From an uncultured Pseudomonadales bacterium (GTDB lineage: Bacteria > Patescibacteriota > Microgenomatia > UBA1400 > PJMF01), in NCBI GenBank assembly GCA_964457085.1, contig CAYWDM010000002.1, forward strand, positions 116,037 through 180,036: DNA of 64,000 nucleotides, given 5' to 3'. Shown in pieces: positions 8,113 to 58,084 of this stretch; position 1 is the stretch's first letter, and each line of letters begins with the position of its first letter. The translations under genes were made by a program, and so were the position numbers. The notes below the pieces were generated by a model that made no database searches, was not told the DNA's origin, and saw only the letters and a program-made list of their open reading frames with translations.

Positions 8113-9225
8113 ATGTATATGGCTGAACAAACAGAAAAACCAAAATTTGATTTAGAAAAAGCAATTGCGGAGATGTTGGCGGTCCCTGAATTTACCAAAC
8201 TTAAGCTTGATGTCTGGGCTAAAAAAATGGGAATTGAAGCTAGCTCAAGGGACTTACGAGCCAAGGTGATTGATTGGCTGGTGAATTATCCAGATCAAAA
8301 GCAAGCGGAACAATTGATGAGTAAAATTCATTTTATGGATTTTGCATTCATTTCTTCCCAAGTAATACCACGTTGGAACGAGGCAAAAAAATCTCAGCCA
8401 GAACAATCAAAGCTCACTCCCTCACAGGAAAAATTATTTAAATTAGTGGGTGCGACTGCAGCTACGGGTACCGCAATTGCTGTTTCAGAAATAGTTCGAC
8501 GACTAGACCAATTAATTAATGGTGGCGAACAAGTTTTTAGTGCTAACATCAACACGGCTGAGTTAGTCCAAGATTTAGAACAGAAACTGGATGGCAAAAA
8601 AATCACTATCCAACAGTCACTAGGTGGAAGAACTGGAGCTGGTGATACGCTAACTCTTATTGATGGACAAGACAAAGTGCTGTTGACCATAACGATCAAG
8701 AACTCAGCAGAAAATGCTCCATTAAACAAAACTTTATTTAGTGATGAAGAGCCTCGAAAAATGCCTAAAGTTGAGGTAATGGTCAGCAAATCAAATGGTG
8801 GAAATTTCTTTGAAAAAGGCGTTGACCTCTATGGAAGTGGCAAGCGGGCAATTCAGCAACTGCAAACTGGAGGTAGCGGAGTTGTTAATAGTATTCTGAA
8901 TGCAGCTGACGATGTGGGTGAAATGATTGGGTTAGTTGATTTGCCCAATCAAGTTTCTAATGTGATTGAAAAATTAGCAGAGCGAGAAGAACAGGAGTTT
9001 GATCGTGAGTCAGATGAGATTGCTACTCTTAATAATAATCAACTCGAGTTAGTACTTTCTGCTTTATTGTGTACAAGTTGTGGCGTGCCTCGACCTAAAG
9101 AAGCAAGTGCATTATGCGCACAATGTGGTGCTGCACTGGCAAATCGAGTAGAGGCCGATGTTGGTAAATACGGACAACAATTGGTTAAATTTAAGCAAAT
9201 GGGAATGGTTGACTCAGATAAATGA
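8113..9225 (+). CDS. Hypothetical protein with a C-terminal CxxC...CxxC zinc ribbon.
   Basis: 370 aa with CTSCGVPRPKEASALCAQCG at the C-terminus. No other recognisable motif. Confidence 0.5.
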   Translation: MYMAEQTEKPKFDLEKAIAEMLAVPEFTKLKLDVWAKKMGIEASSRDLRAKVIDWLVNYPDQKQAEQLMSKIHFMDFAFISSQVIPRWNEAKKSQPEQSKLTPSQEKLFKLVGATAATGTAIAVSEIVRRLDQLINGGEQVFSANINTAELVQDLEQKLDGKKITIQQSLGGRTGAGDTLTLIDGQDKVLLTITIKNSAENAPLNKTLFSDEEPRKMPKVEVMVSKSNGGNFFEKGVDLYGSGKRAIQQLQTGGSGVVNSILNAADDVGEMIGLVDLPNQVSNVIEKLAEREEQEFDRESDEIATLNNNQLELVLSALLCTSCGVPRPKEASALCAQCGAALANRVEADVGKYGQQLVKFKQMGMVDSDK

Positions 9226-9357
9226 TTTTTTGAGTCTGCGACAGTGAATAGAGTGTCGTCTGGTATAATACCTCCATTAATATGGTTACTTTGTTGATTG
9301 GTGCGGTTGGTTTGGTTTCTGACCGATTACGAATCAAGCAAGGGTGAAAGGATACCT

Positions 9358-9627
9358 ATGGCACTCGATAAAGCCAAAAAAGACCAAGTTATCAAAGACT
9401 TTCAAATTTTTGAAGGTGACACTGGATCTCCAGAGGTTCAGATTGCTTTGTTGACTATTTCTATCCAAGAGCTCACTGAGCACTTGAAGAAAAACAAGAA
9501 AGACAATCATTCTCGCCGTGGTTTGTTGAAGCAGGTTTCGAAACGCCGTCGCTTATTGAGCTTCTTGCTCAAGAGAAGTGAAGAGCGTTACCAAGCTGTA
9601 ATCAAGAAATTAGGTTTGAGTAAATAA
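9358..9627 (+). CDS. rpsO: 30S ribosomal protein S15.
   Basis: 89 aa (MALDKAKK...[14 protein letters not shown]...HSRRGLL), classic S15. An AAAGGA RBS precedes the ATG at 9358; the track start at 9298 is too long. Confidence 0.93.
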
Positions 9628-9672
9628 CTTGATCGTTTGCACCGAAAAGTGCATTGACTTGAAAATAAAAAA

Positions 9673-9697
9673 CCACCTCGAAAGGGGTGGTTTTTTG
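9673..9697 (+). terminator. Rho-independent terminator after rpsO.
   Basis: CCACCUC-GAAA-GGGGUGG (GNRA tetraloop) followed by U6. Confidence 0.8.
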
Positions 9698-9768
9698 GTT
9701 GTACAAATAACGAGAGTGATCTGAGGTGAATGATTGATTTTGATCAGTAATCTCTGTACAGTGATGGT

Positions 9769-10134
9769 ATGGGTGTAAATGCTACTATTTCTAATACCAC
9801 AAATGCCGTTCAGTCTGGCATAAATGACCTCCCACTTTCAGCTGCAGAACAAGCATTGAAAGATCGAATTGATCGTTATAACCAATTACCCGAAGTTAAA
9901 GGTGAAGAGTTGGTAGATCAGTACTTGGATCTACAGACCACATCGACAGTGATTAAATCAGCTGTGCAGATGGTACAGAGCGATGCTCATACAAATTTGA
10001 TTGATCAAGATACAAAACAGACCATGACTGCAGAAATTAAAACTGCGAGCCAACATCTCCTTGGTCAAGCTTCTGATTTTTTAACTGTGTGCAAAGAGTA
10101 TAAAGACCAAAATGGTACAAAGAGTACTTCATAA
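9769..10134 (+). CDS. Hypothetical protein, 121 aa, first gene of the accessory region.
   Basis: ORF ending 6 bp before the 1047-aa gene, so probably co-transcribed. Confidence 0.45.
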   Translation: MGVNATISNTTNAVQSGINDLPLSAAEQALKDRIDRYNQLPEVKGEELVDQYLDLQTTSTVIKSAVQMVQSDAHTNLIDQDTKQTMTAEIKTASQHLLGQASDFLTVCKEYKDQNGTKSTS

Positions 10135-10139
10135 GTAAT

Positions 10140-13100
10140 ATGCCAAATGAAAACATCCCCTTCCTAAAGGAAATCCAAAAAGGCTATTTGCCAAATGCAA
10201 AAAATGCAGAATCTGCAAATGCAGTTTTTGACTTAGTGGCAGATGAGGCTAAATCTGTAATGGAAATGGGTGAGCAGGCAGAGGTAGTTTCGAGTGCTGC
10301 ACGTCAAGCGATTAATGAAGTCTTAAAAGGAGAACAAGTCTGGACGACCGTTTTGGAATCGGTTCAAAAAAAGTTGATGGATGGCGTTGGCAATATGGAT
10401 TCCCTTCGTGAGCTCCGAGCTTTGCAGGTGTTTGTCAAAGAAAATTTACCGATACTTTCTCAGGGTAGATTAGAGAAAAGTGGTACTGGTGAGGGTGCAA
10501 GGCGAGAACGTGCTGAGATAGTGTTAGAAGTGCAAAACATGGTGGTGAGCTCTGTTGCGGAAAAATTGGCAGACACCAAACATTTACCGCCCAGAATTAC
10601 ATTTGTACAATCTTGGCAAACTGCGATTCCTGATTTAAAGCGGAGGCTAGGAGTTGCTGGCAAAACTGAACTCTCCAAGGAGATTGACAACTTATTGGAT
10701 GCAAGTACACCATCAGGCAATGACGCACTACTTCAAGTAAATAGGATGTTTTCGGAAGCGAAAATTACTGAATTTGTAGCTCGTTATGAGGTGAAATCAG
10801 AAGCTGATTCAGAATCTGCCACCACCATGTCTCCACAGGGCGAAGTGTATGCAGCATTTCTGCAACAACAGCTGGAATCTTTTGATGCCGGGCAGCATCA
10901 AATAATCAACACTCAAGTTACTCAATTAGAAGAACAATTTTTGAATGACATATTTGCTGGGATCTGGCAGAGAAATGGTAAACTTTCGAAAACGCTAGAT
11001 GAATTACCTGATGATCGTAGAGGTAACAGAGCTATCTCCGAGATAGTCAAGATGAGTGTGGAAGGTGGTAATCTGGGTGATTATTTATTAGCTTTGGGGC
11101 AGTTAAGTAATGAACAGCGAAGAATTGCTTTCCAAAACTCATATGATGCTTGGAATAAAGTTCCTAGAACCGCAGAGGAAAAGTCAGAAGCAGCAAAGAT
11201 ACTATTGGTGGCCTTTGATAGGGAGACAGACGGTGAAACCAATTACGCAGTTGAACAGCTGCAAAAGAGTGCTGGAAATCCTGATGTAGTGCAACTTCGG
11301 GCCGAGTCAAAAGCAGAACTGACGAAGGAAGCCATGGGTGAGCTTACATCCGATTTATTCACTATTGATCTGACAAATCCAAGTTACAGACTCTATGTGC
11401 CTGAGTTAGTCAGTAAGCTGATCGATAAGGGTGTAGATACTCGGAGGTTAGCCGCGGCTCAACTAGCGAAACAAGAAATATTCCAAACTACAATTACTGA
11501 TATTCTAGAAAAACACATGCCAAAAGATGTCACACAGGCACAACAGTTTATCGATGAGTCTAGATTTGCTTTAAAAAATGCACAGAAATTGGAATATTAT
11601 CGACAAGGAAAAGATGGCTTTGTGATTCGGAAGGACTTGGGTGAGCGTGACAATCAAGTGCTGGAGCGTCGTAAGCAACAAATGTTTTTAGTAGGCTTCG
11701 TACGCCATTTGTTAAATCAACCTCAACATGCACCAGAAGCAGTGACTGACATGCGGCAGTATTTTGCAGATGCCGAGAAGTTTGGAGTTACCGCCAAAAT
11801 CTTGATCGATATTCATAACTCTGTCTCTACCGCGATTGTGGCATTTAATAAGAAAATCGAGGCTACAAGTGTGGGAGCTTATCACAGAGAAAGTGCTGCA
11901 ATTGACTTTACCGACCACATGACACGGGTTATGAAAATCCCACCTCCACTTGGTGTTCATATGCTCACCATGACTGAAGCAAAAGGTCTAGAGAATTATG
12001 GCTGGGGCGGTGAGGATCGCCCAAGCACTGGTAATGTCGGAATATATACTGACAATGCTGAGGATTCGAGAGATCAGGTTATAGCTGGGTATGCAGTGAA
12101 AGATGTTCTAAAAAGAGCTCAGATGAAGGTTGATAAATCAGGGATTGTCCCGTTATTAAATACCGGAGCTGAGCTAGATTCTTTTGAGTCTAGACTGGCC
12201 AGACATGAGTCATTGCTCAAGCCAGGGTTTGGAGGAATGTATGAGGGCCAGCAATGGCACAATGTTGATAGATTTGACAATCTAATCAAAAATGATCCAT
12301 ATGTCGATCTACAAACAAAAGCAGCGGAGTCTTTAGTTGAGCCTGATGAGCAGGCATTAAAAGCAGCCATGGAGAAGTTGGCACTGACAGGTAAAAAAGG
12401 AGATGAGCTATCATCAGCCGTAGATTCTTGGGGATATCATTGTGAAAATGATTACTCAAGACTTGGTTTTGCAGAGAAAGGCCTAATTAGGTTGGGAGGT
12501 GGTAGTAGCACACTTGCGAGTGAGAAGCACAGGTATGAGCAAAGCGCCGAACAGTTAACTGGCGAGAAATTCAATTTACTTGAGAGTGCAGATCGGTTGC
12601 GTTTGAGAAATACTCTTGAAGCTAGGAAGAAAGCAGCGCAAAAGAAATTGGCTACAGAGATTGCTACGAAGATCAAGGGAATTAGTGCAAAAGTAGTTTC
12701 TGGTGAAAGCATGGCTGCTGAGTATGTAAAAATGATGCTTAAAGATCCAGAGATGCCTTCACTGGAGGTCGTTGATTACAGCCAAAATTATCGTACATTA
12801 AAGGTGATTGCAGCTGATGACATTAATACGGTGCAGACTGATCCTCGCCTTGAAGTTATATATCGTACTTTCCAGAAAGCGAGAGAGGCTTATGGGAAAA
12901 GAGTGTATTCAAAGGTGAATAACTTAGTGGCAAATCGTGCCTATGGTACAGAGACTCAAGCGATAGAGGATGCAGTTGGAGAGTTGAGATTAAAATTAGG
13001 ATATACGGAAGCTAGAGAATCTATGGGGTACAGTAGAGAGCCTTCGCCACCAAAAGTTGATTTAACTCCGATCAGTCGAGCTATCGAACCTGTTCTCAAA

Positions 13101-13283
13101 AAAGGCTATGCACTCAACACTCAAGCAATCAATTTGAATTCAATAAAATCAGAGCCATTCAAGCAAATGCCAGGTGGTTCAGAAGATTCTGAACAGGTAG
13201 TGCTCAAAAAGAAACAAGAGCTTGAACAGAGACAGCAGAAACTAGTGATGGCAGCAACGCCTTCACCTCAGCAGTCATCGTAA
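10140..13283 (+). CDS. Large hypothetical protein (1047 aa), helical and charged, no recognisable catalytic motif.
   Basis: Uninterrupted 3.1-kb ORF with consistent composition and no signal peptide. Confidence 0.6.
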   Translation: MPNENIPFLKEIQKGYLPNAKNAESANAVFDLVADEAKSVMEMGEQAEVVSSAARQAINEVLKGEQVWTTVLESVQKKLMDGVGNMDSLRELRALQVFVKENLPILSQGRLEKSGTGEGARRERAEIVLEVQNMVVSSVAEKLADTKHLPPRITFVQSWQTAIPDLKRRLGVAGKTELSKEIDNLLDASTPSGNDALLQVNRMFSEAKITEFVARYEVKSEADSESATTMSPQGEVYAAFLQQQLESFDAGQHQIINTQVTQLEEQFLNDIFAGIWQRNGKLSKTLDELPDDRRGNRAISEIVKMSVEGGNLGDYLLALGQLSNEQRRIAFQNSYDAWNKVPRTAEEKSEAAKILLVAFDRETDGETNYAVEQLQKSAGNPDVVQLRAESKAELTKEAMGELTSDLFTIDLTNPSYRLYVPELVSKLIDKGVDTRRLAAAQLAKQEIFQTTITDILEKHMPKDVTQAQQFIDESRFALKNAQKLEYYRQGKDGFVIRKDLGERDNQVLERRKQQMFLVGFVRHLLNQPQHAPEAVTDMRQYFADAEKFGVTAKILIDIHNSVSTAIVAFNKKIEATSVGAYHRESAAIDFTDHMTRVMKIPPPLGVHMLTMTEAKGLENYGWGGEDRPSTGNVGIYTDNAEDSRDQVIAGYAVKDVLKRAQMKVDKSGIVPLLNTGAELDSFESRLARHESLLKPGFGGMYEGQQWHNVDRFDNLIKNDPYVDLQTKAAESLVEPDEQALKAAMEKLALTGKKGDELSSAVDSWGYHCENDYSRLGFAEKGLIRLGGGSSTLASEKHRYEQSAEQLTGEKFNLLESADRLRLRNTLEARKKAAQKKLATEIATKIKGISAKVVSGESMAAEYVKMMLKDPEMPSLEVVDYSQNYRTLKVIAADDINTVQTDPRLEVIYRTFQKAREAYGKRVYSKVNNLVANRAYGTETQAIEDAVGELRLKLGYTEARESMGYSREPSPPKVDLTPISRAIEPVLKKGYALNTQAINLNSIKSEPFKQMPGGSEDSEQVVLKKKQELEQRQQKLVMAATPSPQQSS

Positions 13284-13348
13284 ATTGCTGATTTAGTTTT
13301 GCCGATTGCTGACATGTTAATTTCAGAAATGAAGAAGTGGTGACTTCA

Positions 13349-14092
13349 TTAACTATTTGGCTTGAAGTCTTTTGGAAAAGGATGAGCTGAGGGGTAGTTT
13401 TGTGTCCAACCACCACCATATTTTTTGTTGGCCAAGAGTATAGCTCGCTCTCCGGGATCAATCACGATTAGCTTGCCATCAGCAGTGCGTAGTAGCCCTT
13501 TAGCTACCAAACCCTGAAGGATTGAGTCAAAAATTTCTTCTGGTTTATTATTTACCTCGTTGGTGATTTTGTTGGTGTCTTTTTTAGAGATCACTACTGC
13601 TGCCCATAATCGTTGATATGGCCCATCAGTATCATCTTCGCTTTTGCCAAGAAATGAAAAGGCAAACACAAAATCTCCATGTTCCCAGCCACCTTTTTTT
13701 GAATCACAGGGAATTAGATCAAAGGCTGGTTTTCCCAGTAACCCATCTATTACAGTTTGACCGCGACTGTGTGATTGCTTGTCAAAACAGGTTTCATCAA
13801 ATTTGCGAACAGGTACAAAGATACCTATTGTTTTCATGCCACTCTCCACTGCTTGTTTAAATGACTGATCTGCAGTGATTGCAGCTTTTATCTTGCCAAG
13901 AATTTCAGTGAGACCAGGGCTCATTTCTTGAAGCGGTTTGATTTTGTCTCCGTGTAGAGTTTCGCCAGTTCTGCCAAGAAAAAGTGGTGGTGTTTCCTGT
14001 TCCTCAACGCCGAAAAAACCTTCTTTTCCTGGTCCATTTTTGCCAATTCCTGCTTTTCCAATTCCTGCTTTGCCTGCAAGTGCCTGTGCCAT
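13349..14092 (-). CDS. Module protein A1 (247 aa), paralogous to the 19230..19985 protein and divergently transcribed from giant gene B1.
   Basis: The C-terminal half aligns with A2 (WEHGDFVFAF...SKKDTNK... versus EHGWALFVMSGKDTNK...). N-terminal GKAGIGKAGIGK micro-repeat. Confidence 0.6.
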   Translation of the reverse strand: MAQALAGKAGIGKAGIGKNGPGKEGFFGVEEQETPPLFLGRTGETLHGDKIKPLQEMSPGLTEILGKIKAAITADQSFKQAVESGMKTIGIFVPVRKFDETCFDKQSHSRGQTVIDGLLGKPAFDLIPCDSKKGGWEHGDFVFAFSFLGKSEDDTDGPYQRLWAAVVISKKDTNKITNEVNNKPEEIFDSILQGLVAKGLLRTADGKLIVIDPGERAILLANKKYGGGWTQNYPSAHPFPKDFKPNS

Positions 14093-14154
14093 AGTTCTGT
14101 CTCCCAGATCATATTAGCACTAAAAGCCTATGTTTTGCATCATAAAAATCAGCT

Positions 14155-17100
14155 ATGATTATTTTGGAAATGATATTGGAAGCGACAACAGTGACCGGAG
14201 CTAGGCAACATGGATTTGACGATCTTGTTGTGGCTCCTGAGGATCCCGTATCAGTACTCAGAGATTTGAATTGTGGTGAGGTGAGAACAAAAGATACCTC
14301 ATACCTAAAAAGCCAAAATGAAGTTTCGGATATGGTTAAGGCCACAAAAGAACTAAAGTGGCCAGGTTTTTGGTACGAATTACTGCAGGGAGCTTGGGAT
14401 TATAACGACTGGAGTAAAGGTAGTCCTCAAATTACCATTACTTTTGCTGGTGGTGAATCAATTTCACTGGCTCAGTTTGTCAGTGAGTGTGCTGCAGCTG
14501 GTGGTTTAAAAAAACTCAAACGTGGTCGAATTCAAGAAGTGAGTGTCAGCAATAACATTCGCGGAGATACTGGACTGCGACCTGTAAATGTGGTGTTGAC
14601 TGATCACGATGAAAAGGACGGTAAAAAACCACTGGGAACACATGGGCGAGGACTAAAAATTGCCAGTACTTGTGTTTTTGCTGGCGAATTGGCTAAAGCG
14701 ATTTCATATGAGTCATGGGTGCCAGAAATGGGTATGTGGTACGGTGAGGCCGGCATGCATCGGGATGAAGATGACCCAAAAGCTCCAGAAAATTTTCAAA
14801 TTAAATACAAACGAAATAAGGAATTGCAGACAGATAGAACTGTAATTAGAGTAACAGAGCCTGCAGAGGATTTGGTAGAAGCACTAATTTCATTTCAAGA
14901 TTGGTTTTTACCAGTCAATGGCAACTACCGTTTCCAAAGGATGGAGGCACAATCTGCAGATATGGTGCCTAATCGAGCTACGATTTTTGCCAACAAAAAA
15001 CACGCTCAAGAACCCCACGATGCTGCGGTTACTCCTTCAGAGCTGAGGTGGACGTATGGGCAAAATAAACTGGATGAGGCCGATGGTGTGGAACCACCTA
15101 GAGTCGAGATTCTATCGCGGGAATTATTGCCAACTGCACCAAATCCTATTAATTTTGTGTTTATTGATGGTTTGAGGGTGGGAGTGCCGGGAGCTACATT
15201 TTGTCAAATCTATGCTTTTTGGGGCTGGGGCAAAGGGACTAGTCATGGATACAATCCTGGTCGATCAAATGACTCGCTTAAAATGACCGGTGATATTGAC
15301 GATTTGTTGGCAAAAACATTAACGCTTAACACTAATGCAGCAGTTTTTTTGGAAATCATGGTTGCGAATTTAAATGGCCACAAAACGTATGAGGGTACAG
15401 AAGTGTCATATCTAGATGCTCTCGCTGGAAATGCAGCATCAAAGTCAGCACTGACACATGCATGGGAAGAATTAAGGATGGCAACTAATTCACCTGCAGA
15501 TGTTTTGATTACAGACTCTAAAGACGATTATGATCGGGCAAAGCGTGAGCAAAAAGTCGCTTTATTTTTGCCAAAACGATGGACAGCAATTTTGTGTGAG
15601 ATTATTCCAGGTTTGACTACTGCAGGCACGGTTTTTTCTCAAGAATTTGAAGAGGTTCAAGCGAAAGAGAGAGCCACTAGGCAGGCTATGGAACTGCAAC
15701 AGCGTGAAATGGAGGCTCGGGTTGTGAGAGAGAAGGAAGAGGCAATTGAACAATATAGAAAGAGCCGAGGTATTGTTAAGGAGGCATCAAATACTGGTGA
15801 AGTCATTAAAATGGCAAGACCAGAAAACAAACAAATAACGTTGCAACTGGCTTTATTGCATCTGGTGCATGCGTTGGCTATGGATGGTGGCAGAGTTGTA
15901 TCAGGCGATCCAAAGAAATTAATTCTCGAGATGCGAGCTGGTGGTTTTGATCAGTTGCCCAATAATACCAATTCGCTTGATGTACTTGGTGAATTTCTCA
16001 AATTGTACCTGGTGGTGTTTGGTAGTGACGCAATCGCAGAGTTAAAAATCGTGAGACAAGAAAAGGGAGTGTATTTCAATTTTGCCAGAAGTAAAAAAGC
16101 TGATTCTTTTGGCAACTACACCATTGAGGTACAGCAGGGTGAACTGGAACTACCACATGACAGTTGGGTGCAGTTAGAGTTGTCATTACCAGACACAACT
16201 GATGATAACGCATCCACTGGCGAAGCACGCCAACCACTAACTAGTGTTGATGGAGAAGATCTAGATTGTGCTGGATACCATGATGTGCTGACTCAGGCGA
16301 TTCGCGCCATCAGTAATTTGGATGGAACAGTTGATAGAAATGTCTATATGGCGAGTGAATATTTTGCACTGTATCCAGCAGCTGAAGCCAGAATGCGACT
16401 CCGCATGGAGATCGAAAAAACACAGCTTGAAATGAAGCTGTTATTCGATGAACAAAATAAATTGCGAGTGAGGTCTGGACTCAAGCCGTTGCCATATCCA
16501 GATGAATTAAAAACAACACGACCTCGGAAGGTGGGGCTTGGTGCTGGTATGGGACTACCGCCTGCGGAAGCCGACCTAACTCCAGCAGAAGAAGAGGAAA
16601 AGACTAAACAAAATCGTGAACATTCTGCAGCTCGAAAGTTACGTCAAAAAATGTCCAACATCTTGACGGGCAATGAAATTTTAGATGATGTTCCAGTCGA
16701 CTCTGAGATTATTAGTATGATTCACCCAGATAGCGTTCCGGGATTGAGTGAAAAAGGCGATGTGGAACGTATGCAGATGGTGCTGGCTGAATTACCCATT
16801 GGTGAGCGGATGAGAGCAACATTGGCTGAAAAGATGCGTGAGATTCTCAATCGTGTGGCAGTGCCAGACTTCTCACTCAGTTCAGGAGAATGGTTGCATC
16901 TGCGCGGATATTTAATTGATCACATTAATCCCGCTCATTCAATCACAACTACAGATAATTATGATGCTCTACCAGCCCTACCATTCACTGAGATGCAGGC
17001 AAATCCCTGTCTCAGATTTAATAAGAAAATTATTGCAGGACTATATTCAATTCCATGCCCACCTGGATTTCATCCGGTGGCAGTCAGTCATCCTGGCGGT

Positions 17101-18747
17101 CCAAATATTGGTTTACATTTCTCTGGCAATTTAGAGAAAAATGTTTTTGCAATGAATCTTGAAAAAGACGTGCCTCCGGGACTGAGTTTTTATTTTGAGC
17201 CGACCAAAACAGTTGATCGTTCATTACCCGATCAGCGTGAATGTGAAGTCACAGCTGATGAATCTAGTTTGGCAGAGCACTGGTTTAATTTGATTACCTC
17301 AATTCGTGAGTCATCACTAACTGATAAGCAAAAAGTTGATGTCATTATTCGTGCTTGGGTCAAGGCTTTTAACTACAGCAAAGAACAAAAAGCATTTGAC
17401 GAATATACAGATAGTCGAGGAATTAAAAAGAAATTTACTACAGATATCATTAACAAATCGATTGGCAACTGTGGGTATGCAACCCAAGGTATTTTAGGGT
17501 TACTTACTTTAATTGGGATTCCGACCAGAGATGTGGCGGCATTTCTGCATGATGGCGGTGGCAATTTTTCGCGTCAAGGAAATTATCACGGTATGGTGCA
17601 AGTCTATATTGATAACCGTTGGGTGTTGATCGAACCGCAAAGCGGATATGTTCAGGAAGGGTATGAAACTGAAGAACTACCCACAACTGTTCGTACTGAA
17701 TTTGAAAATTTACTCGGTGAGATTCCCAGAAGGTACTTAGAGTCAGCTCGAACTGTTGCGGCACTGCCTGATGTAGTTGGAGAAGATGAGAACGAAATAC
17801 CAACCATGGCTACTGGGCTTCGTGAGAGCTTGCGGGCTTTACTGCCATTTAGCTTACCAACATTTTCAAATCCATTTGCACTACTTCGTGACCGATGGAC
17901 TGAATTCATGCAGCGACGTCGAGAATCAAGCGGACGTAATCAGCACGAGGCAACAGTAATAAATCCCGCTGAGTTGCTCCGCGACTTAGCACAGGCAACA
18001 AATGCACTACAGCTAACTGAAGGAAAATTACCAGAGGGAATAACTCAATCTGAACCATTTACTGGTGCAGATATGGGACAGCAATTTTTGATTGAGCTGA
18101 GCACACAAATTACAGAGATGATGGCTGATTCCCCAACAACCATTCTTAATCCAGATGCTCCAATTGCCGAAAGATTAGAAGTAATGGAAGAGCAGTTATT
18201 GCATTACACTCGTTTGTTGCAAACTGTGCGAACAGCACAAATGTATGAGATGGTAACCGATGATCAAGTTGAGGCGATAAAGAATACTGTTGATAGACTG
18301 GGTCAGTTTGTGGTGCAGCTGCGAAATGAACAATCTGAGTTTGAGGATGCACAGCTACGAAAAGAATTATTCAGGGCAAATTTGAAAAAATCATTATTGC
18401 GGCTGAGTGCAGTTACAGCCGGAGCAACCATTGGAGCATTGTTGGCTCCACATATGAATGAGATCTTGTCACTGGGAGCTACTCAATTAGCTGCAACCAA
18501 ACAGCTGGTGGAATCACTGGCATCATCAGGACCAAATCTTCCCTCACCATCTGAAATTGCAACCAGTACCCAAGATTTTGCTCAAGAACAACTCCGAAAA
18601 ATCGAGTCCGTACCACAAAAACCAATTACTGAAACAATGCGACAGTATTGGCTGCTCGCATTAGTGGCAACAATACTAGCTGGCACACATACAGGAGCAT
18701 ATATGTTGGGTAAGACGAAAGAATCACCCGCAGAAATAGAGGATTAA
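14155..18747 (+). CDS. Giant protein B1 (1530 aa) with a transglutaminase-like (papain-fold) Cys/His core near the C-terminus and C-terminal hydrophobic segments.
   Basis: Conserved with B2 over the N-terminus (KDTSYLKSQNEV...WPGFWYELLQGAWDYNDW; IRGDTGLRP; GTHGRGLKIAS; YAFWGWGKG...NPGRSNDSLK). Cys motif IGNCGYATQG, then YHGMVQVYIDNRWVLIEPQ, and a Glu/Lys/Arg coiled central region. Confidence 0.7.
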   Translation: MIILEMILEATTVTGARQHGFDDLVVAPEDPVSVLRDLNCGEVRTKDTSYLKSQNEVSDMVKATKELKWPGFWYELLQGAWDYNDWSKGSPQITITFAGGESISLAQFVSECAAAGGLKKLKRGRIQEVSVSNNIRGDTGLRPVNVVLTDHDEKDGKKPLGTHGRGLKIASTCVFAGELAKAISYESWVPEMGMWYGEAGMHRDEDDPKAPENFQIKYKRNKELQTDRTVIRVTEPAEDLVEALISFQDWFLPVNGNYRFQRMEAQSADMVPNRATIFANKKHAQEPHDAAVTPSELRWTYGQNKLDEADGVEPPRVEILSRELLPTAPNPINFVFIDGLRVGVPGATFCQIYAFWGWGKGTSHGYNPGRSNDSLKMTGDIDDLLAKTLTLNTNAAVFLEIMVANLNGHKTYEGTEVSYLDALAGNAASKSALTHAWEELRMATNSPADVLITDSKDDYDRAKREQKVALFLPKRWTAILCEIIPGLTTAGTVFSQEFEEVQAKERATRQAMELQQREMEARVVREKEEAIEQYRKSRGIVKEASNTGEVIKMARPENKQITLQLALLHLVHALAMDGGRVVSGDPKKLILEMRAGGFDQLPNNTNSLDVLGEFLKLYLVVFGSDAIAELKIVRQEKGVYFNFARSKKADSFGNYTIEVQQGELELPHDSWVQLELSLPDTTDDNASTGEARQPLTSVDGEDLDCAGYHDVLTQAIRAISNLDGTVDRNVYMASEYFALYPAAEARMRLRMEIEKTQLEMKLLFDEQNKLRVRSGLKPLPYPDELKTTRPRKVGLGAGMGLPPAEADLTPAEEEEKTKQNREHSAARKLRQKMSNILTGNEILDDVPVDSEIISMIHPDSVPGLSEKGDVERMQMVLAELPIGERMRATLAEKMREILNRVAVPDFSLSSGEWLHLRGYLIDHINPAHSITTTDNYDALPALPFTEMQANPCLRFNKKIIAGLYSIPCPPGFHPVAVSHPGGPNIGLHFSGNLEKNVFAMNLEKDVPPGLSFYFEPTKTVDRSLPDQRECEVTADESSLAEHWFNLITSIRESSLTDKQKVDVIIRAWVKAFNYSKEQKAFDEYTDSRGIKKKFTTDIINKSIGNCGYATQGILGLLTLIGIPTRDVAAFLHDGGGNFSRQGNYHGMVQVYIDNRWVLIEPQSGYVQEGYETEELPTTVRTEFENLLGEIPRRYLESARTVAALPDVVGEDENEIPTMATGLRESLRALLPFSLPTFSNPFALLRDRWTEFMQRRRESSGRNQHEATVINPAELLRDLAQATNALQLTEGKLPEGITQSEPFTGADMGQQFLIELSTQITEMMADSPTTILNPDAPIAERLEVMEEQLLHYTRLLQTVRTAQMYEMVTDDQVEAIKNTVDRLGQFVVQLRNEQSEFEDAQLRKELFRANLKKSLLRLSAVTAGATIGALLAPHMNEILSLGATQLAATKQLVESLASSGPNLPSPSEIATSTQDFAQEQLRKIESVPQKPITETMRQYWLLALVATILAGTHTGAYMLGKTKESPAEIED

Positions 18748-18748
18748 T

Positions 18749-19237
18749 ATGATTAAACCACCCCAAATTGCAGTGACTTCATCGATCGGTGAGTATGATT
18801 TGTTTGAGTTGATGAATCTCAGCAAAATGCCACAGTCTCAAAAAGATACTTATTTATTGGATGCTAATGCCCTGATTTGGCAGGGTTTTTTGATGGAAAA
18901 ATTACCACATTTATTAACTCAACAACAGTATCAACAACTGCAGCAACAACTAAATGATGGCAAAACTCTCGAGGAAATTTTAGCTTGGTTATTGGAGCTG
19001 GTGCCGAATTTTACATATTTGCTGGCAGAATTCACTCGTGATGCAAAAGCAACATTGGTTGAAAAACAGTTTCAGAGTGAGATCTTGAGCTTGGAAAAAA
19101 TGCTCTCAACAGAATTAACAGAACAAAATTACCAGAAGATAAAAATCAGTCTTTCAAATTACAAGACTGCACTGCGACTTGCAGTACAACAAGAATGGCG
19201 TCAGATTATTGAGTTATGGCAGGCGTCAATTATTTAA
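18749..19237 (+). CDS. Module protein C1 (162 aa), small acidic helical protein paralogous to C2.
   Basis: Its start overlaps the B1 stop (TAATATGA) and a GAGGA RBS is present. EYDLFELM...ILAWLLELVPN...AEFTRDAK aligns with C2. Confidence 0.6.
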   Translation: MIKPPQIAVTSSIGEYDLFELMNLSKMPQSQKDTYLLDANALIWQGFLMEKLPHLLTQQQYQQLQQQLNDGKTLEEILAWLLELVPNFTYLLAEFTRDAKATLVEKQFQSEILSLEKMLSTELTEQNYQKIKISLSNYKTALRLAVQQEWRQIIELWQASII

Positions 19238-19985
19238 CGGTTGTTGTTGAGGCATAATTTTTTGGATATCTGCCTTTAACATGGGTATTGGAAAGAATAA
19301 TCACATGCTCGCCCATATCAACTTCAGCTTGCTCACCAGTACTCAGTTGTAATGGTTCATCTTCTGAAAGCATTCCAAGATCAACTAAATGCTCAAATAC
19401 TGCGGATGGATCCTTCAGACAATCAGCGGCAAATTTATTAGTGTCTTTACCAGACATCACAAATAATGCCCAGCCATGTTCTTGTTTTGGTTGAGAGCTA
19501 TCTTCAGTATCATTTGTAGCGGCGATTGCAAAATGAATCACTACTGCGTGGTCTTTTGATCCCCAGTTACCTAGTTTAGATTTGATTGGCTCTTCGACTG
19601 GCTCTTCGACTGGTCTTGAAAACAATTTTTTTACAAAACTAAGTCTAGTTTTTTGACTGGTCTTCGTTGTTCGTGTTGAGCTGTCTAAAAACTGAATAGG
19701 AACCACCTGTAGCCAAGTTGTGTCGCCAGGTTTCATTTGTGACTCTGGAATGGGGTCACCTGCCAAAACGGCTTGAATGTCTTTTCTTTTGAGTACATTT
19801 TCAATTACAGGATCAAGAATTAGTTTCTCAATTTGAGAAGGTTCAAGACCTCTATCACTATGTTCTGGTTGTGGCAGTTTAATAAACTTAAATTTAAATT
19901 TTATTTGACCGTCATCGACTTCTTGTAAATCGGGTTTGCCATCAAGATTTGGTTTTGAGGGAGTAGATTCTGAGATTTGAGTCAT
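19230..19985 (-). CDS. Module protein A2 (251 aa), paralog of A1, divergent from B2.
   Basis: Alignable with A1 over the C-terminal 120 aa. Contains a PVEEPVEEP micro-repeat. The 3' end overlaps C1 convergently by 8 bp. Confidence 0.6.
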   Translation of the reverse strand: MTQISESTPSKPNLDGKPDLQEVDDGQIKFKFKFIKLPQPEHSDRGLEPSQIEKLILDPVIENVLKRKDIQAVLAGDPIPESQMKPGDTTWLQVVPIQFLDSSTRTTKTSQKTRLSFVKKLFSRPVEEPVEEPIKSKLGNWGSKDHAVVIHFAIAATNDTEDSSQPKQEHGWALFVMSGKDTNKFAADCLKDPSAVFEHLVDLGMLSEDEPLQLSTGEQAEVDMGEHVIILSNTHVKGRYPKNYASTTTVK

Positions 19986-20065
19986 GCTAATTCCTTTTTT
20001 ACTCTACTTCAGAATACCACGGAGTACTTGATCTGGACAGTAACTATCAGCTATTCTGGAGAAGT

Positions 20066-23000
20066 ATGACATTAATGGATGTCCTTGGTTTTGGTGGCGT
20101 CATGTTTCGTGGCTCAAAGAAGTCAGGTGTGGATGGTGTGCCCCCCATGATTCCAGTTGAGATGGGTGACCCGCAGGCAGAGCTACGCAATCTCGGCCCA
20201 GAATCAAAGGTTAAGGGTACTTCATATAACGATCAGCAGAACGAAGTACGAGAGATGATTGATGCTACCAAAGAAAAGCGTTGGCCAGGTTTTTGGTATG
20301 AATTACTGCAGGGTGCATATGAGTACAACGATTGGAATCGGGGATTACCACGGATTTTAGTATATTATGCCGGAGTGGCTGAACCAGTGAGCTTGACTCG
20401 GTTTGTCTCTGATCGTGGTCGATTTTTCCATCGCAAAGTTGAAAGAGTTGAAATCAAAAACTATATTCGAGGCGATACTGGACTACGACCGCATAATGTC
20501 GCCGCAACTCTTCATGAAGAAAAAGATAATCAAGTTGGTTTGAGTGCTCATGGACGTGGGATGAAAATTTCATCCACTGCAGCCGCAGGTCATTTGGCGA
20601 AAGGCATCACTTTTGAGTCATGCGTACCTGGTATTGGTGCTTGGTTTGGTCGTGGTGAGATTGCACGGGATGAGGAGGATCCACGACCTTCAGATACATT
20701 CCAACTGCGGTATAACAATAATCCTGCATTGAGAGCAAAAGAGACCATTTTTACCGTACTTGAACCAAATAGTGCTGCTTTGAAAGCCTTGTCTGATTTA
20801 CCCAAATGGTTTTTACCCACGAATCCCGCATATCCAAGCTATCGTCTTGATGCAGAGCCAACCGCAACACGACCCAATAAAACTACTATATATGCTAACC
20901 AAAAGTTTGTGGGAGCTGAGAATAGTCTCGCTTTCTCTGAAAGAGAATTAAATTTATTTGGAAATAGTGGATTAAAATCTGAAGCTAATGCAGTTGAACC
21001 TGCTCGGGTTGAAATATTACCGGATAACTTGACTGGAAAGCGACGGGGCAAAATCGACTACGTATATGTTGATGGATTGCGAGTGGCAGTTGAGGGTGCC
21101 CAGTTTGCTAATGTGTATGCCTTTTGGGGGTGGGGCAATGGTGATCATGGTTTTAATCCGCGTCGTTCCAATGATTCCTTGAAGTTGGCAAATGCAATGA
21201 ATTTTTTACTAGGTGCCACGTTGTGTCGTTGTCCAAATCCTGAGGTATTTTTATCCATTCTACGTTCAAATTTGAATGATAAGGCCACCTTTGAAGGGGG
21301 TACCGGCATTTTTGAAAGACATTGGTACGACCTTTCAAAAAGTATGACTGGTGAAGCAAAAGCTGCCATGAGTGCTGCTTGGGGTCAGTTGACTACCGAA
21401 ATTGGTGTCAAAGGCAGAGTGTATGTCACATCTGAAAAAGAATCAAAGCAACGAGCCAAGCGAGAGAAAAAACCAACCATTTTGATGCAGCAGAACTGTT
21501 TAGCAATGTTGATGGTATCGAGATCTGATCTAAGGACTGTTGAGTCGGTGTTTGAAGATGAGGCCAAGGATGCAGAGGCACGTGAGGCTCAATTGAAATG
21601 GGAGAAAGATAAATTAATTCGTGAAAAAGAAGAACTGAAAAAAGAGGCTAAAAATAGAGACGAATATCTAAAGTTAGAGGCGGCAAAGGAAGCCGAGGCT
21701 AACGCCAAAAAGCGAACTGGTATTAAAGAGTATGCCGAAAGTACTGGAGAATTTCTCCGAGTGGCAGCACCCGATGATCCATCAATTGCAGTTGAGATGG
21801 CAAAAATAAATTTAATTAATTTATTTATGCTCAACCAAGGCTCTTTTAAACTAGAAAAAATTGGCCTTTTTGCTAAAACCGGGAAATTGGTAATTGATTT
21901 GCAGATGCCTGAGCTGGTGACGCTGCCGAGAAATGTTAAAGACATGGGACCGGTTGGTGATTTTGTGTTAAATTTTTTAGCCGCTGGTTCCACGACTGCT
22001 ACAGCCGAGGTGAGGTATGTGCGCAATTCAGAGGGGGTCTATTTTCATTTAGGTCGGTCGATGATTGACGAAAGGATTGATAAGTTTGGTAACTTCAGGA
22101 TTTTTGTGAATCAGGGTTCACTAGACATGACCGACAAACATCTAGTGAGAATCACACTCGATTTAGGAGAAAATGATGAGACAAGATTTAACGGTGAAGT
22201 GGCAAAGATATTTGAGTCATTGCAAAAGGCTGATGGCACTCCTGATGTAGATCGGTATCTGGAAAGTCAGTATTACCATGATTTTCCACCAGGTGAAGAT
22301 AGGCTTAAAGAAAAACGCAAAATGGAAGCGGAGCTACAGCAATACGAAAAGCACTTAGCTGAAGAGAATAGACGTCGACGTCGTGTTGGCCTGCCGCCAT
22401 TACCGAGCAAATACAATGCCAAATCAAGATTTGGTGGGCATGACGAGTTTGAAGATGAACCTGCATCTGGAGGAAGAGCCAAACTCCCCGCACAACGTGA
22501 TCGCAAAACCTTAGATCGTATTAGACGTTCTGAAGAACGAGCGATCGGTGATTCTGGTATCGATATCCAAGATGCGATCTTATCGCTGATGCACCCAGAT
22601 GCCAGGCCAGGAATTACTACGCATGGCACTGAGAAGCGACGGCGCATGGTACAAGAATCACTGTCTGGAAACGAGCGGCTTAGAAATGAAGCTGCAGCTC
22701 GGGCTAGGGAGATTTTTAAGCGACAATTGATCCCAGATTGTTCGATGTCGTCTAGTGAGTTTAGTCGGGTGAGACCATACCTTATTGACCATATCGACGA
22801 TGAAAACTTTGGCACTGACGATTACGACATCTTGAGTGGTTTTGAGTTTGGCCAGTTGAGTAATTTGCCCAAATTGAGGTTCAATAAACCAATTGGTTCC
22901 GGACTAGGCTCACTCCCTTGCCCTCCTGGGTACAGGCCAGTTGGGTATTATCACCCAGAGGGCGAGATTAAAGGACTGCATTTTTCAGGAAATTTTGAAC

Positions 23001-24136
23001 GCAATGTTTTTGCCATCTCATTACCTCGTGGTATTGATAAAGGCCTAACGGTCTACTATCGAAAGTTGAAATCATTTGCTGATACCACAGAGCCGACGGA
23101 AGAAAATCGTCGTTGCAGAGTGAAGGTGGAAACATTAAATGGTCCATGGTCTGAGCTGTTGATTGCATTACGCGATAGTCCTTTAAATGAAAAACAAAAA
23201 GCCGACATTATCATTCGAGCTTGGTCTCAGCGGGGCTTTATCTATGATAAGTCAGAGGCAGGACATCGTAAGTACGACCCGTATGGCTCGATTGATAGCC
23301 CTGAGTTTATGAGTGCTATTCTTAATTTTGGAAATGGTACTTGTGGGCATGCGGAAAAAGGTTGGCAGGGTGCGGGGACTGCTTGTAACTTGGCGGTTCG
23401 AAAAGTTACCAGTTATCTTGCTGGTGCTAATGGCGGTTTCTCGATGCGTGAAAATTTACATGGCTTGATACAGGTCTACATTAAAGATAGGTGGGTATTG
23501 GTAGAGCCACAAGTCGGATATATAGATCCTGGATATGAGTTAGAAGAAATACCAGCTCCATATCGTGAGAAATTTACTCGTTTGATTGAGGCGATACCTA
23601 ACGCAAAAGTTACTTCCCCAGAGCGTTTATCAGCGTTGCCAGATGTGCTTTCTGAAAACACAGAAAATTACACCAGCATGATGGAAGAATTAAGAATGAA
23701 ATATGATGAATATTTTGGTGATGGAGAACAGCTCACGCTCAGTGACTTGATGGTAGCTGTGCGTTCCGGTTTTGTCCAATTTGACAAACGCAAACTAGCA
23801 CTCTCACTTGCTAAATATTCAGCTCTAACCTTAGCTGGGGCATTTGCAGTACATGAAATTACACCAATGATTCCGAAGTTAGCTGAAATGACATTACAGC
23901 TTTTGGACTCAATTCCTCCAGAAAAATTAAGAAATATAGCAATTGGAACCATAGTGTCCATAGTCGCAATATCATATTTAGGTACCGGGAAGATTGGATT
24001 TGAGATCGGAAAATATATTGAAAGTCGTCGGTTAAGTTTAGCTTTTGCTTCCGATGAAACAGCAGCACTTCCAGATAGTTCAAGTGATGGTGGTGAAGAG
24101 AGCCCTTTGCCTGCGATACTACCAGTAGTAGACTAG
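20066..24136 (+). CDS. Giant protein B2 (1356 aa), paralog of B1 with a transglutaminase-like Cys/His core and C-terminal transmembrane-like helices.
   Basis: Shares the motifs WPGFWYELLQGAYEYNDW, IRGDTGLRPHNV, SAHGRGMKISS, YAFWGWGNGDHGFNPRRSNDSLK, GNGTCGHAEKGW and LHGLIQVYIKDRWVLVEPQ with B1. Confidence 0.7.
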   Translation: MTLMDVLGFGGVMFRGSKKSGVDGVPPMIPVEMGDPQAELRNLGPESKVKGTSYNDQQNEVREMIDATKEKRWPGFWYELLQGAYEYNDWNRGLPRILVYYAGVAEPVSLTRFVSDRGRFFHRKVERVEIKNYIRGDTGLRPHNVAATLHEEKDNQVGLSAHGRGMKISSTAAAGHLAKGITFESCVPGIGAWFGRGEIARDEEDPRPSDTFQLRYNNNPALRAKETIFTVLEPNSAALKALSDLPKWFLPTNPAYPSYRLDAEPTATRPNKTTIYANQKFVGAENSLAFSERELNLFGNSGLKSEANAVEPARVEILPDNLTGKRRGKIDYVYVDGLRVAVEGAQFANVYAFWGWGNGDHGFNPRRSNDSLKLANAMNFLLGATLCRCPNPEVFLSILRSNLNDKATFEGGTGIFERHWYDLSKSMTGEAKAAMSAAWGQLTTEIGVKGRVYVTSEKESKQRAKREKKPTILMQQNCLAMLMVSRSDLRTVESVFEDEAKDAEAREAQLKWEKDKLIREKEELKKEAKNRDEYLKLEAAKEAEANAKKRTGIKEYAESTGEFLRVAAPDDPSIAVEMAKINLINLFMLNQGSFKLEKIGLFAKTGKLVIDLQMPELVTLPRNVKDMGPVGDFVLNFLAAGSTTATAEVRYVRNSEGVYFHLGRSMIDERIDKFGNFRIFVNQGSLDMTDKHLVRITLDLGENDETRFNGEVAKIFESLQKADGTPDVDRYLESQYYHDFPPGEDRLKEKRKMEAELQQYEKHLAEENRRRRRVGLPPLPSKYNAKSRFGGHDEFEDEPASGGRAKLPAQRDRKTLDRIRRSEERAIGDSGIDIQDAILSLMHPDARPGITTHGTEKRRRMVQESLSGNERLRNEAAARAREIFKRQLIPDCSMSSSEFSRVRPYLIDHIDDENFGTDDYDILSGFEFGQLSNLPKLRFNKPIGSGLGSLPCPPGYRPVGYYHPEGEIKGLHFSGNFERNVFAISLPRGIDKGLTVYYRKLKSFADTTEPTEENRRCRVKVETLNGPWSELLIALRDSPLNEKQKADIIIRAWSQRGFIYDKSEAGHRKYDPYGSIDSPEFMSAILNFGNGTCGHAEKGWQGAGTACNLAVRKVTSYLAGANGGFSMRENLHGLIQVYIKDRWVLVEPQVGYIDPGYELEEIPAPYREKFTRLIEAIPNAKVTSPERLSALPDVLSENTENYTSMMEELRMKYDEYFGDGEQLTLSDLMVAVRSGFVQFDKRKLALSLAKYSALTLAGAFAVHEITPMIPKLAEMTLQLLDSIPPEKLRNIAIGTIVSIVAISYLGTGKIGFEIGKYIESRRLSLAFASDETAALPDSSSDGGEESPLPAILPVVD

Positions 24137-24160
24137 ATATAAATAAATATACATAAACCT

Positions 24161-24709
24161 ATGGTTACTGAGATGGCTCCAACAAAATCAATAGACGATT
24201 ACTCAGTTTTTGATTTGATTGGTGTTGAGTTAACACCAGAAGAACAAGAAAGCTATATCTTGGAATTAAATGATGAGGTATGGACTCGGTTTATCGAACA
24301 ACGGTTACCGTTTTTATTGACCGAAACTCAGTTGGATGAGCTGCGTGACCAACTTACTGAGACAATTCCATTTGATCAGATATTAACATGGCTGCAGCAG
24401 CTAGCTCCAAACACTCCAGAATTAGTTGCAGAATATACCCGTGATGTTAAAACTGAAGCCATTGAGAAGAGTTTGCTCGCACAATTGGCTCAGTGTGAAA
24501 AAATTCTAGCTAATGAAATTTCTGAAGAACATCGACTGCAACAACAAGAGCGACATGAACGGCTGCAGGCTGCTATTGGCTACGCACAACAGCAACTGTG
24601 GGATGATGTCGATCGTGTCCTCAACAGCTCAGAACCATTTGTGATAGGTAGTGAGGGATATGCAATTAATAAAATCGATTCAGTTGAAGTAGATGAGGAA
24701 TCAAAATAA
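24161..24709 (+). CDS. Module protein C2 (182 aa), paralog of C1.
   Basis: DYSVFDLIGV...ILTWLQQLAPNTPELVAEYTRDVK aligns with C1; same position relative to B2. Confidence 0.6.
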   Translation: MVTEMAPTKSIDDYSVFDLIGVELTPEEQESYILELNDEVWTRFIEQRLPFLLTETQLDELRDQLTETIPFDQILTWLQQLAPNTPELVAEYTRDVKTEAIEKSLLAQLAQCEKILANEISEEHRLQQQERHERLQAAIGYAQQQLWDDVDRVLNSSEPFVIGSEGYAINKIDSVEVDEESK

Positions 24710-24712
24710 ATC

Positions 24713-25321: not shown

Positions 25322-25349
25322 TTTGATATCTTAAAAGATAAGGATATAT

Positions 25350-25940: not shown

Positions 25941-26233
25941 TAGTCTTTTTGTTATTTTGGTTACTTCTTATCGAATAGTAGACATTACTACAGCTATTGC
26001 TGTTGTGGCTCTGTTATAATTACCCAGTAAGTAATTTGGCTCGTCAGAGGATGAGTCTAGTTTAATTTTGGAAAACGGTTGAGAATTCAAGAGAGATGAT
26101 GAGGATGGGTGATAACTCCAGTTGGCATTCAAATAGCACAACTCGGACACTTTCATTGCTTGTCTTTTCTCCAGAATGCTCACGTTTTCCCCTAAGTTGT
26201 CAGTGATCTGGCAGCAACACAGAAAGGACTGTT

Positions 26234-58076: not shown

Positions 58077-58084
58077 TTTAAATG

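Follow-up and report, generated by a model that had tools for sequence, protein, structure and literature searches.

We found that two tandem giant proteins encoded in the window (the whole stretch of 64,000 nucleotides analysed) carry in their C-terminal third a two-domain module like that of TgpA, a beta-domain followed by a core of transglutaminase/papain fold. In both proteins this module is fused to a coiled coil, a middle domain and, as judged from a structural model and motifs, an N-terminal domain of the GHKL fold (the Hsp90/MutL/MORC/topoisomerase-II kind). A homologous small gene (~155 aa, helical product) always lies directly downstream of the giant gene, and within the sub-family to which the window's genes belong, a further small gene lies divergent upstream. 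We consider it probable that each giant protein is a membrane-anchored cytoplasmic enzyme of combined GHKL and transglutaminase fold that works with an obligate small partner. B1 (1530 aa; 14155..18747, + strand; open reading frame and translation) contains, in order, the GHKL-like domain, a conserved region, the coiled coil, the middle domain, the beta-domain, the transglutaminase core and C-terminal hydrophobic helices. Its paralogue B2 (1356 aa; 20066..24136, + strand) has the same domain order and is 36% identical to B1 over 1250 aa.

We found that the cores of both proteins match the Pfam Transglut_core profile (PF01841; curated cutoff 23 bits). The core of B1 (aa 1036-1165; 17260..17649, + strand) scored 34.5 bits (E 2.6e-8), above the cutoff. 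B2, the 36%-identical paralogue, scored 18 bits (E 0.0036), under the cutoff; its beta-domain and core (22838..23521, + strand) were placed from this match and from invariant alignment columns. All seven close relatives of B1 and B2 also matched PF01841. A preliminary description had proposed a Cys-His core of the transglutaminase-like papain fold in both proteins, with Glu in the position of the canonical Asp, and the profile search bears this out. The motif strings that it quoted are all present in the translations, at the coordinates that it gave, and the profile matches far exceed what chance would produce. In B1 these are IGNCGYATQG (aa 1103-1112, nt 17461-17490) and YHGMVQVYIDNRWVLIEPQ (aa 1144-1162, nt 17584-17640), and in B2 GNGTCGHAEKGW (nt 23330-23365) and LHGLIQVYIKDRWVLVEPQ (nt 23456-23512). 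The codons for the catalytic positions are at 17470-17472 (Cys1106), 17587-17589 (His1145) and 17632-17634 (Glu1160) in B1, and at 23342-23344 (Cys1093), 23459-23461 (His1132) and 23504-23506 (Glu1147) in B2.

In searches of PDB sequences neither whole B1 nor the profiles A2 and A3 gave a match; only the broader core profile of the family, A8, succeeded, with matches to TgpA (E 1.3e-9) and 3isr (E 1.1e-7). In the alignment of A8 with TgpA, the family Cys, His and Glu fall on Cys, His and Asp, the Glu being placed on the Asp of 'WLSVDPT'. An AlphaFold model of the B1 enzyme region has a pLDDT of ~90 in the core. It places the Cys at the N-terminus of a helix and the His and Glu on successive strands, a papain-like layout, and the top-ranked structure in a Foldseek search with this model was again TgpA (E 3e-7).

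The similarity to TgpA is not limited to the core. The conserved block upstream of it, noted in the preliminary description, is real and forms a predicted beta-strand domain (in B1 aa ~940-1020; 16972..17214, + strand; from the model). Its FNK, PCPPG and GLHFSGN motifs start at 17017, 17053 and 17110, respectively, and the B2 counterpart of the block is at nt 22880-22993. The domain has six strands (model residues 115-179, corresponding to B1 952-1016). When the predicted enzyme module was superposed on TgpA, 221 residues aligned to the 278-residue periplasmic domain. This exceeds the core alone, and we therefore regard the block and the core together as a TgpA-like two-domain module.

TgpA (PA2873 of Pseudomonas aeruginosa; periplasmic domain in PDB 6g49/6g4h) is thus the best profile match. 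Its catalytic Cys and His align with those of the window proteins at similar spacing, and TgpA and, by prediction, the window proteins are membrane-associated. In TgpA the N-terminus is a DUF3488 membrane domain of several helices, and the enzyme domain lies in the periplasm and has a Cys-His-Asp triad (PMC3507681). In contrast, B1 and B2 had no match to DUF3488 (PF11992) and no multi-span membrane domain before the enzyme. Instead, they have the predicted GHKL domain and the coiled coil, Glu for Asp, hydrophobic helices at the C-terminus only, and twice the length of TgpA. Three other proteins of the fold, 3isr (a putative cysteine protease of Cytophaga hutchinsonii), TglA (9crn) and LapG (4fgo; a calcium-dependent periplasmic protease), are small and single-module; their triad has Asp, and they are not fused to a GHKL domain. 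In the literature searched we found no fusion of a GHKL domain to a transglutaminase fold.

The N-terminal 250 residues are predicted to adopt the GHKL (Hsp90/MutL/MORC-type) nucleotide-binding fold; the assignment rests on a model with a mean pLDDT of 63 together with motifs. In B1 the domain spans aa ~60-250 (14332..14904, + strand), with an N-box, Y74-E75-x-x-Q78-G79-x-x-D82, at 14374-14400 and a G2 box, G161-x-x-G164-x-G166-x-K168, at 14635-14658. The B2 domain (20255..20815, + strand) was placed by alignment with B1 (WYELLQGA from nt 20294, HGRGMK from nt 20549). The model has the Bergerat arrangement: the N-box, YE(L/F)xQ(N/G)xxDY, forms part of a helix, a helix starts at the G2 box, GxxGxG, and a low-confidence 'lid' lies between the two boxes. 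The giant proteins resemble GHKL ATPases (Hsp90, MutL, MORC, SMCHD1, topoisomerase II) in this G2 box and in the N-box YELxQNxxDY found in one third of the family, and they resemble MORC proteins in having a coiled coil after the GHKL domain. Sacsin is likewise a giant multidomain protein that combines an Hsp90-like GHKL module with a C-terminal effector-type domain (PMC3710099). The resemblance is architectural only, as Sacsin is eukaryotic, has a HEPN domain instead of a transglutaminase and has no detectable sequence relationship to B1 or B2.

The giant proteins differ from GHKL ATPases at positions that bind nucleotide and metal. The canonical N-box ExxxNxxD is incomplete: Glu75 and Asp82 are present, and position 79 is Gly in both B1 and B2. 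At this Mg-binding position 53 of 83 relatives have Gly and 30 have Asn. The canonical G1 box, DxGxG, begins with the adenine-binding Asp; in this region B1 and B2 read N133...(D/E)138-x-G140 and most relatives N-x-G-x-G-L, with Asn replacing the expected Asp. Judging from these substitutions, ATP hydrolysis by the domain may have been lost. Pfam HATPase_c had no match in B1, B2 or the seven close relatives, and profiles A3 and A9 matched no GHKL chain in the PDB. An hhalign comparison of the N-domain profile with the N-terminus of E. coli MutL (an approximate query sequence) gave no signal (probability 0.2) and is uninformative. A match of A9 to TAL effectors (E 9e-7) was an artefact: 'GLSPEDxVxIxHGGG' matched the TALE repeat ~15 times, each time insignificantly, and the scores were summed.

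We found that the giant genes belong to a cassette, and that in the window the entire A-B-C cassette is duplicated in tandem. A1 (247 aa; 13349..14092, - strand) is divergent from B1 and 62 nt upstream of it. C1 (162 aa, helical; 18749..19237, + strand) begins 1 nt past the B1 stop codon. A2 (251 aa; 19230..19985, - strand) is the upstream partner of B2 and shares 8 nt with C1, where the 3' ends of the two genes overlap, and C2 (182 aa, helical; 24161..24709, + strand) lies 24 nt past the B2 stop codon. A1 and A2 are 26% identical (E 3e-15), and C1 and C2 are 32% identical. Homologues of C lie directly 3' of the giant gene in loci L001, L002, L004, L007, L008 and L012-L015 (hmmsearch E 1e-25 to 1e-39). 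Upstream of the giant gene, L001, L002, L004, L007 and L008 carry a weakly conserved ORF (190-250 aa) oriented as in the window. A scan of 9200-26300 for promoters and terminators found fewer promoter-like sites than in shuffled sequences and is therefore uninformative. Three candidate assignments were rejected. A substrate Gln supplied by partner C was dropped because 'LLTxxQ', invariant in 7 sequences, is unconserved in the wider set of 11. DUF5663 was matched by only one of 11 C proteins (E 0.031), and short HIND-motif matches in 5 of 7 giant proteins, far under threshold, were taken as chance. Neither the GHKL domain nor the conserved cassette appears in the preliminary description.

The giant-protein family is rare, patchy and fast-diverging: a search of 1.8 billion proteins yielded only 116 representative clusters. 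Another, word-indexed search of proteins (alignment A5) returned six already-known relatives and nothing more. The giant proteins are unnamed in the collection searched, where a Pfam scan detects the transglutaminase core in some of them, and NCBIfam had no match for any cassette protein. This distribution, with tandem paralogues only 36% identical, might also indicate a system directed against invaders, in which the effector is a peptidase of transglutaminase fold under the control of a MORC-like GHKL sensor or clamp and the small partners are regulator or antidote. The cassette occurs in differing genomic contexts, in L001 within 4 kb of toxin-antitoxin genes (Gp49/HTH, MNT/HepT, Fic), and in one sub-group a swap has changed the C-terminal enzyme type but left the N-domain and partner C in place. 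In addition, GHKL/paraMORC proteins are known from restriction-linked systems (PMC3710099). However, PADLOC models matched none of B1, B2, A1, A2, C1 and C2, and searches of viral contigs and of phage and plasmid records yielded no relatives. Two related genomes have the cassette in synteny, between rpsO and pnp, and it contains no nuclease or other classical effector. On balance we regard an anti-invader system as unlikely.

The position of the enzyme relative to the membrane bears on a further alternative. Kyte-Doolittle scans identified C-terminal hydrophobic segments in B1 (aa 1413-1431 and 1500-1518; 18391..18708, + strand), a putative membrane anchor, and in B2 (aa 1244-1262 and 1288-1314; 23795..24007, + strand). 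The hydrophobic helices of the preliminary description are thus present, but in B1 and B2 they are only moderately hydrophobic (Kyte-Doolittle ~1.5); relatives have one or two segments downstream of the enzyme domain with higher values, up to 2.1-2.5. Neither a signal peptide nor a hydrophobic segment precedes the enzyme domain in B1, B2 or their close relatives, and no signal peptide or membrane segment was found in partner proteins A and C. Because the hydrophobic helices, one or two, are only at the extreme C-terminus, the bulk of B1 and B2, enzyme domain included, is most likely on the cytoplasmic side.

The preliminary description had instead placed the enzyme at the cell surface. A membrane-tethered, outward-facing transglutaminase domain would act on surface proteins or glycans by cross-linking or cleavage, a role that has been suggested for periplasmic TgpA and WbmE. 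The nearest structure, TgpA, is indeed periplasmic (PMC3507681), and some loci lie amid envelope genes (glycosyltransferases, Wzy and PMT in L001; PBPs in L007). Moreover, in a related sub-group (P0035 to P0043) two membrane helices flank a transglutaminase domain of another kind (Asp-type), an outside topology, so the wider family is not uniform in this respect. For B1 and B2, however, the lack of a signal peptide or transmembrane helix before the enzyme makes action at the cell surface unlikely. The predicted N-terminal GHKL fold, a cytoplasmic module, and partners without export signals also argue against it, and we judge this arrangement to be somewhat less probable still than an anti-invader role.

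We found that the putative catalytic residues are nearly invariant. Among the 95 domain-bearing relatives (of 116 representatives; denominators are the members aligned at each position), Cys is present in 88/92, His in 85/86 and an acid in 80/80 (74 Glu, 6 Asp). B1 and B2 have the Cys and His of the canonical Cys-His-Asp triad with Glu as the third residue. The wider papain-like superfamily accepts Glu as the third residue (PMC10318531), and therefore the substitution is conservative and does not amount to a loss; the core has a complete predicted Cys-His-Glu triad in which Glu replaces Asp family-wide. It is very improbable that the domain lacks catalysis and acts as a scaffold, in the manner of protein 4.2, Rad4/XPC or the ciliary transglutaminase-like proteins, with Glu a sign of active-site decay: the inactive fold members Rad4 and protein 4.2 are among the structural neighbours and Glu is not canonical, but near-invariance of Cys, His and acid across ~90 divergent relatives indicates selection on catalysis, and papain-like triads accept Glu.

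Based on these results we suggest how a membrane-anchored cytoplasmic enzyme of this kind might work. One or two C-terminal helices would anchor the giant protein in the cytoplasmic membrane, with the remainder in the cytoplasm, and the GHKL domain and coiled coil would dimerise it. The state of the GHKL domain and coiled coil, set by ligand, nucleotide or partner protein, would gate the Cys-His-Glu site. This site would form a thioester with a protein substrate, to be resolved by hydrolysis (protease or deamidase) or by attack of an amine (cross-linking). Regulator and substrate are roles for which the small partners are the most obvious candidates.

Bacteria have many proteins of the transglutaminase fold, and few have a known substrate. 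Even for TgpA, which is essential, we know of no substrate that has been identified. The giant-protein family offers experimental handles in its family-wide Glu-for-Asp triad, a covalently attached GHKL-type regulatory domain and an obligate small partner gene, and it adds a new effector type to the prokaryotic GHKL/MORC-like repertoire. More tentatively, the B-C module could be an undescribed machine of small-genome uncultured bacteria, in which a degenerate Hsp90/MORC-type clamp senses a ligand, partner or invader and activates a Cys-His-Glu transamidase or protease, which is anchored in the membrane and remodels proteins on its inner face. If so, its output would be a new defence mechanism or a new route to envelope-associated or cytoskeletal structures.

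We found that the C-terminal regions of the two giant proteins of the window contain a transglutaminase-like core, as the preliminary description had proposed from the sequence. B1 (nt 14155-18747, + strand, 1530 aa) and B2 (20066-24136, + strand, 1356 aa) are paralogues with 36% identity across 1250 residues. All of the motifs quoted for them are present in the translations where they had been placed: IGNCGYATQG (17461-17490) and YHGMVQVYIDNRWVLIEPQ (17584-17640) in B1, and GNGTCGHAEKGW (23330-23365) and LHGLIQVYIKDRWVLVEPQ (23456-23512) in B2, all on the + strand. Four independent lines identify the core: Pfam, predicted fold, sequence profile and local topology. Transglut_core (PF01841) matched B1 above its curated cutoff of 23 bits (34.5 bits, E 2.6e-8), B2 with 18 bits (E 0.0036), and 7/7 close relatives. 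An AlphaFold2 model of B1 residues 838-1215, made from a seven-sequence alignment, had a pLDDT of ~90 over model residues 80 to 355. The first Foldseek match to this model was TgpA, the Pseudomonas aeruginosa transglutaminase with a periplasmic enzyme domain (E 3e-7). A core profile built from 26 diverse family members also matched TgpA (E 1.3e-9) and 3isr (1.1e-7) in the PDB. In the profile alignment, the family Cys corresponds to the Cys of TgpA GFCAHYA, the His to the His of HAWVEYW, and the Glu to the Asp of WLSVDPT. In the B1 model, Cys1106 opens a helix, His1145 is within the long strand that comes next, and the strand after that ends with Glu1160; this predicted topology is the papain/transglutaminase arrangement. 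The core belongs to the known transglutaminase-like superfamily, with TgpA as its closest counterpart.

The Glu in place of the canonical Asp, described earlier in both giant proteins, is the norm in this family. Searching 1.84 billion representative proteins exhaustively with HMMER (E <= 0.001) yielded 116 relatives; the C-terminal module was found in 95 of these, and both the N- and C-terminal modules in 77. Relatives were aligned to the family model and residues were counted per column. The nucleophile was Cys in 88/92 relatives and the next catalytic residue was His in 85/86. Of the aligned relatives, 74 had Glu as the third catalytic residue and 6 had Asp, and none had any other residue there. 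These counts indicate that Glu and Asp are interchangeable and that the triad is under strong selection. The third residue is Asp in TgpA and classical transglutaminases (PMC3507681), and a survey of papain-like enzymes found Asn, Gln, Asp and Glu all to be normal third residues (PMC10318531). The Glu is a conservative variant rather than evidence of decay.

The conserved FNK/PCPPG/GLHFSGN block upstream of the core (B1, 17017-17130; B2, 22880-22993; + strand) is part of the same module. B1 residues 952-1016 form six beta-strands in the AlphaFold2 model, and the superposition on TgpA extends far past the ~130-residue core. Together these identify the block as the beta-domain in a module of two domains like that of TgpA. 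The block is present in B1 and B2 as described, but its conservation is limited to the closer part of the family (aligned in ~40/95 sequences).

The preliminary description had overlooked the N-termini (B1, 14332-14904; B2, 20255-20815), which appear to adopt a GHKL fold, the Hsp90/MutL/MORC-type nucleotide-binding fold. The motifs WPGFWYELLQGAxDYNDW and LGxHGRGLKI resemble two GHKL ATPase motifs, the N-box and the G2 box, respectively. For B1 residues 30-500, a model that leaves out 250-383 had a mean pLDDT of 63 (80-90 over residues 60-220). In this model the N-box falls within a helix, the G2 box marks a helix start, and a low-confidence loop between them is at the expected place of the ATP lid. 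The family N-box consensus is YE(L/F)xQ(N/G)xxDY. Of 83 sequences, 30 have the Mg-binding Asn and 53 have Gly at this position, as do B1 and B2; the canonical YELxQNxxDY is retained by a third of the wider family. One relative with the Asn is P0021. The G1 region is mostly N-x-G-x-G-L, with Asn at the expected adenine-binding Asp position. Pfam and PDB sequence-profile searches gave no match to this domain. The model and motifs, taken together with Gly for Asn, Asn for Asp and the lack of a profile match, point to a GHKL-fold domain of doubtful ATPase competence. It is followed by a highly conserved region, a coiled coil (~aa 495-535) and a middle domain. A profile of the GHKL region also matched TAL effectors (E 9e-7). 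We regard this match as spurious: each repeat match was individually insignificant, and the score arises because the family motif GLxPxDxVxIxHGGG (14560-14640) resembles the TALE repeat GLTPDQVVAIASNGGG.

The enzyme had been proposed to be membrane-tethered and to act at the cell surface. Hydrophobic C-terminal helices are indeed present, as one or two moderately hydrophobic segments after the enzyme domain in close relatives. The surface location is not supported. Close relatives had no N-terminal signal peptide and no hydrophobic segment from the N-terminus through the end of the enzyme domain, the GHKL fold is of a cytoplasmic type, and the partner proteins have no export signals. From these features we infer that the enzyme domain is on the cytoplasmic face of the membrane. 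Unlike TgpA, the window proteins lack DUF3488, probably lack periplasmic placement and have Glu for the TgpA Asp; they are not TgpA-type proteins.

In a sub-group of relatives (P0035 to P0043) the GHKL domain is retained, but the transglutaminase-like domain is a different, Asp-type one with the canonical Cys-His-Asp triad. The motifs read YFCSVAS ... HQNNV ... DDTP in P0035, YFCSVAS ... HQNNV ... DNTP in P0036, and TCGIAN ... YHGYT ... NDATP in P0039. Several members have a membrane helix before the Asp-type domain, and in P0035 this domain lies between mid-protein and C-terminal membrane helices, a layout that would imply a TgpA-like topology with the enzyme facing outside. The sub-group implies that the enzyme domain has been swapped on a constant chassis of GHKL domain and downstream partner.

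B1 and B2 each belong to a three-gene cassette, A-B-C, that is tandemly duplicated in the window (13349-24709). The divergent upstream partners A1 (13349-14092) and A2 (19230-19985), both on the - strand, encode ~250 aa and are 26% identical. The downstream partners C1 (18749-19237) and C2 (24161-24709), both on the + strand, encode 160-180 aa, begin 1 nt and 24 nt past the B1 and B2 stop codons, respectively, and are 32% identical. C1 and A2 share 8 nt at their 3' ends. Because the paralogues are only 26-36% identical, the duplication is old. The A(-)/B/C order recurs around five further close relatives, whose genomic surroundings are unrelated. Homologues of C also lie beside more distant members, including the P0035-type at locus L015 (hmmsearch E 1e-25 to 1e-39); partner A is too divergent to be traced that far. 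Both partners are absent from three loci of a distant branch (L009, L010 and L016), and family searches assigned neither to a family. Partner A opens with Gly/Lys-rich G-x-G-K repeats, e.g., GKAGIGKAGIGKNGPGK, in A1 and at two other loci (L002, 9193-9921; L007, 9218-9931); these might form a flexible, Lys-rich tail beside the putative transglutaminase.

Upstream of the cassette (9769-13283) is a pair of genes, encoding 121 and 1047 aa, that matched no family. The 1047-aa protein is a full-length homologue (20% identity) of a 1011-aa protein at L002, a locus syntenic with the window, where the gene and a 114-aa ORF are downstream of the cassette. The rpsO-pnp region has thus been rearranged between related genomes.

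The window also encodes IF-2 (501 aa), NusA, PNPase, RNase J, AlaRS (646 aa), SUF, Ddl/Mur ligases and FtsK, a gene set that we take to resemble that of an uncultured bacterium with a small genome, of the Patescibacteria (CPR) type. The unusually short IF-2, the short AlaRS and the presence of RNase J (jointly, by position, 6214-7719, 52338-53999 and 61360-63300) fit a reduced-genome uncultured lineage. A tmRNA gene (58082-58516; Rfam 82.5 bits, without an ARAGORN call) and tRNA-Val(CAC) (59256-59332) are both on the - strand. A full-length 482-aa SufB/D gene is followed immediately by a 165-aa ORF (34827-35324) whose match to the SufBD core is confined to the C-terminal part; this ORF may be a truncated SufD.

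The cassette could be a conflict or defence system, or it could serve envelope or cytoskeleton remodelling. Three features lean towards a conflict system: different enzyme types occur on one chassis of N-domain and C partner, the cassette is duplicated in tandem, and its distribution is patchy. Two lean the other way: known defence markers are absent, with no match to any defence-system model, and two genomes share the syntenic position of the cassette between rpsO and pnp. We give the defence reading a low probability. Relatives were absent from the viral contigs, phage records and plasmid records searched.

The transglutaminase-like core is known. The literature searched had no description of the GHKL-fold fusion, of the Glu as a feature of the whole family or of the obligate small partner, and the family proteins are nameless in the protein collection searched. 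Based on the domain architecture of B1 and B2, we suggest that a B protein would be tail-anchored in the membrane and dimerised through its GHKL domain and coiled coil. The state of this clamp, set by a ligand, residual nucleotide binding or partner C, would gate the Cys-His-Glu site. The site would form a thioester with a protein substrate. Water could then resolve the thioester, making the enzyme a protease or deamidase; resolution by an amine would instead produce a cross-link.
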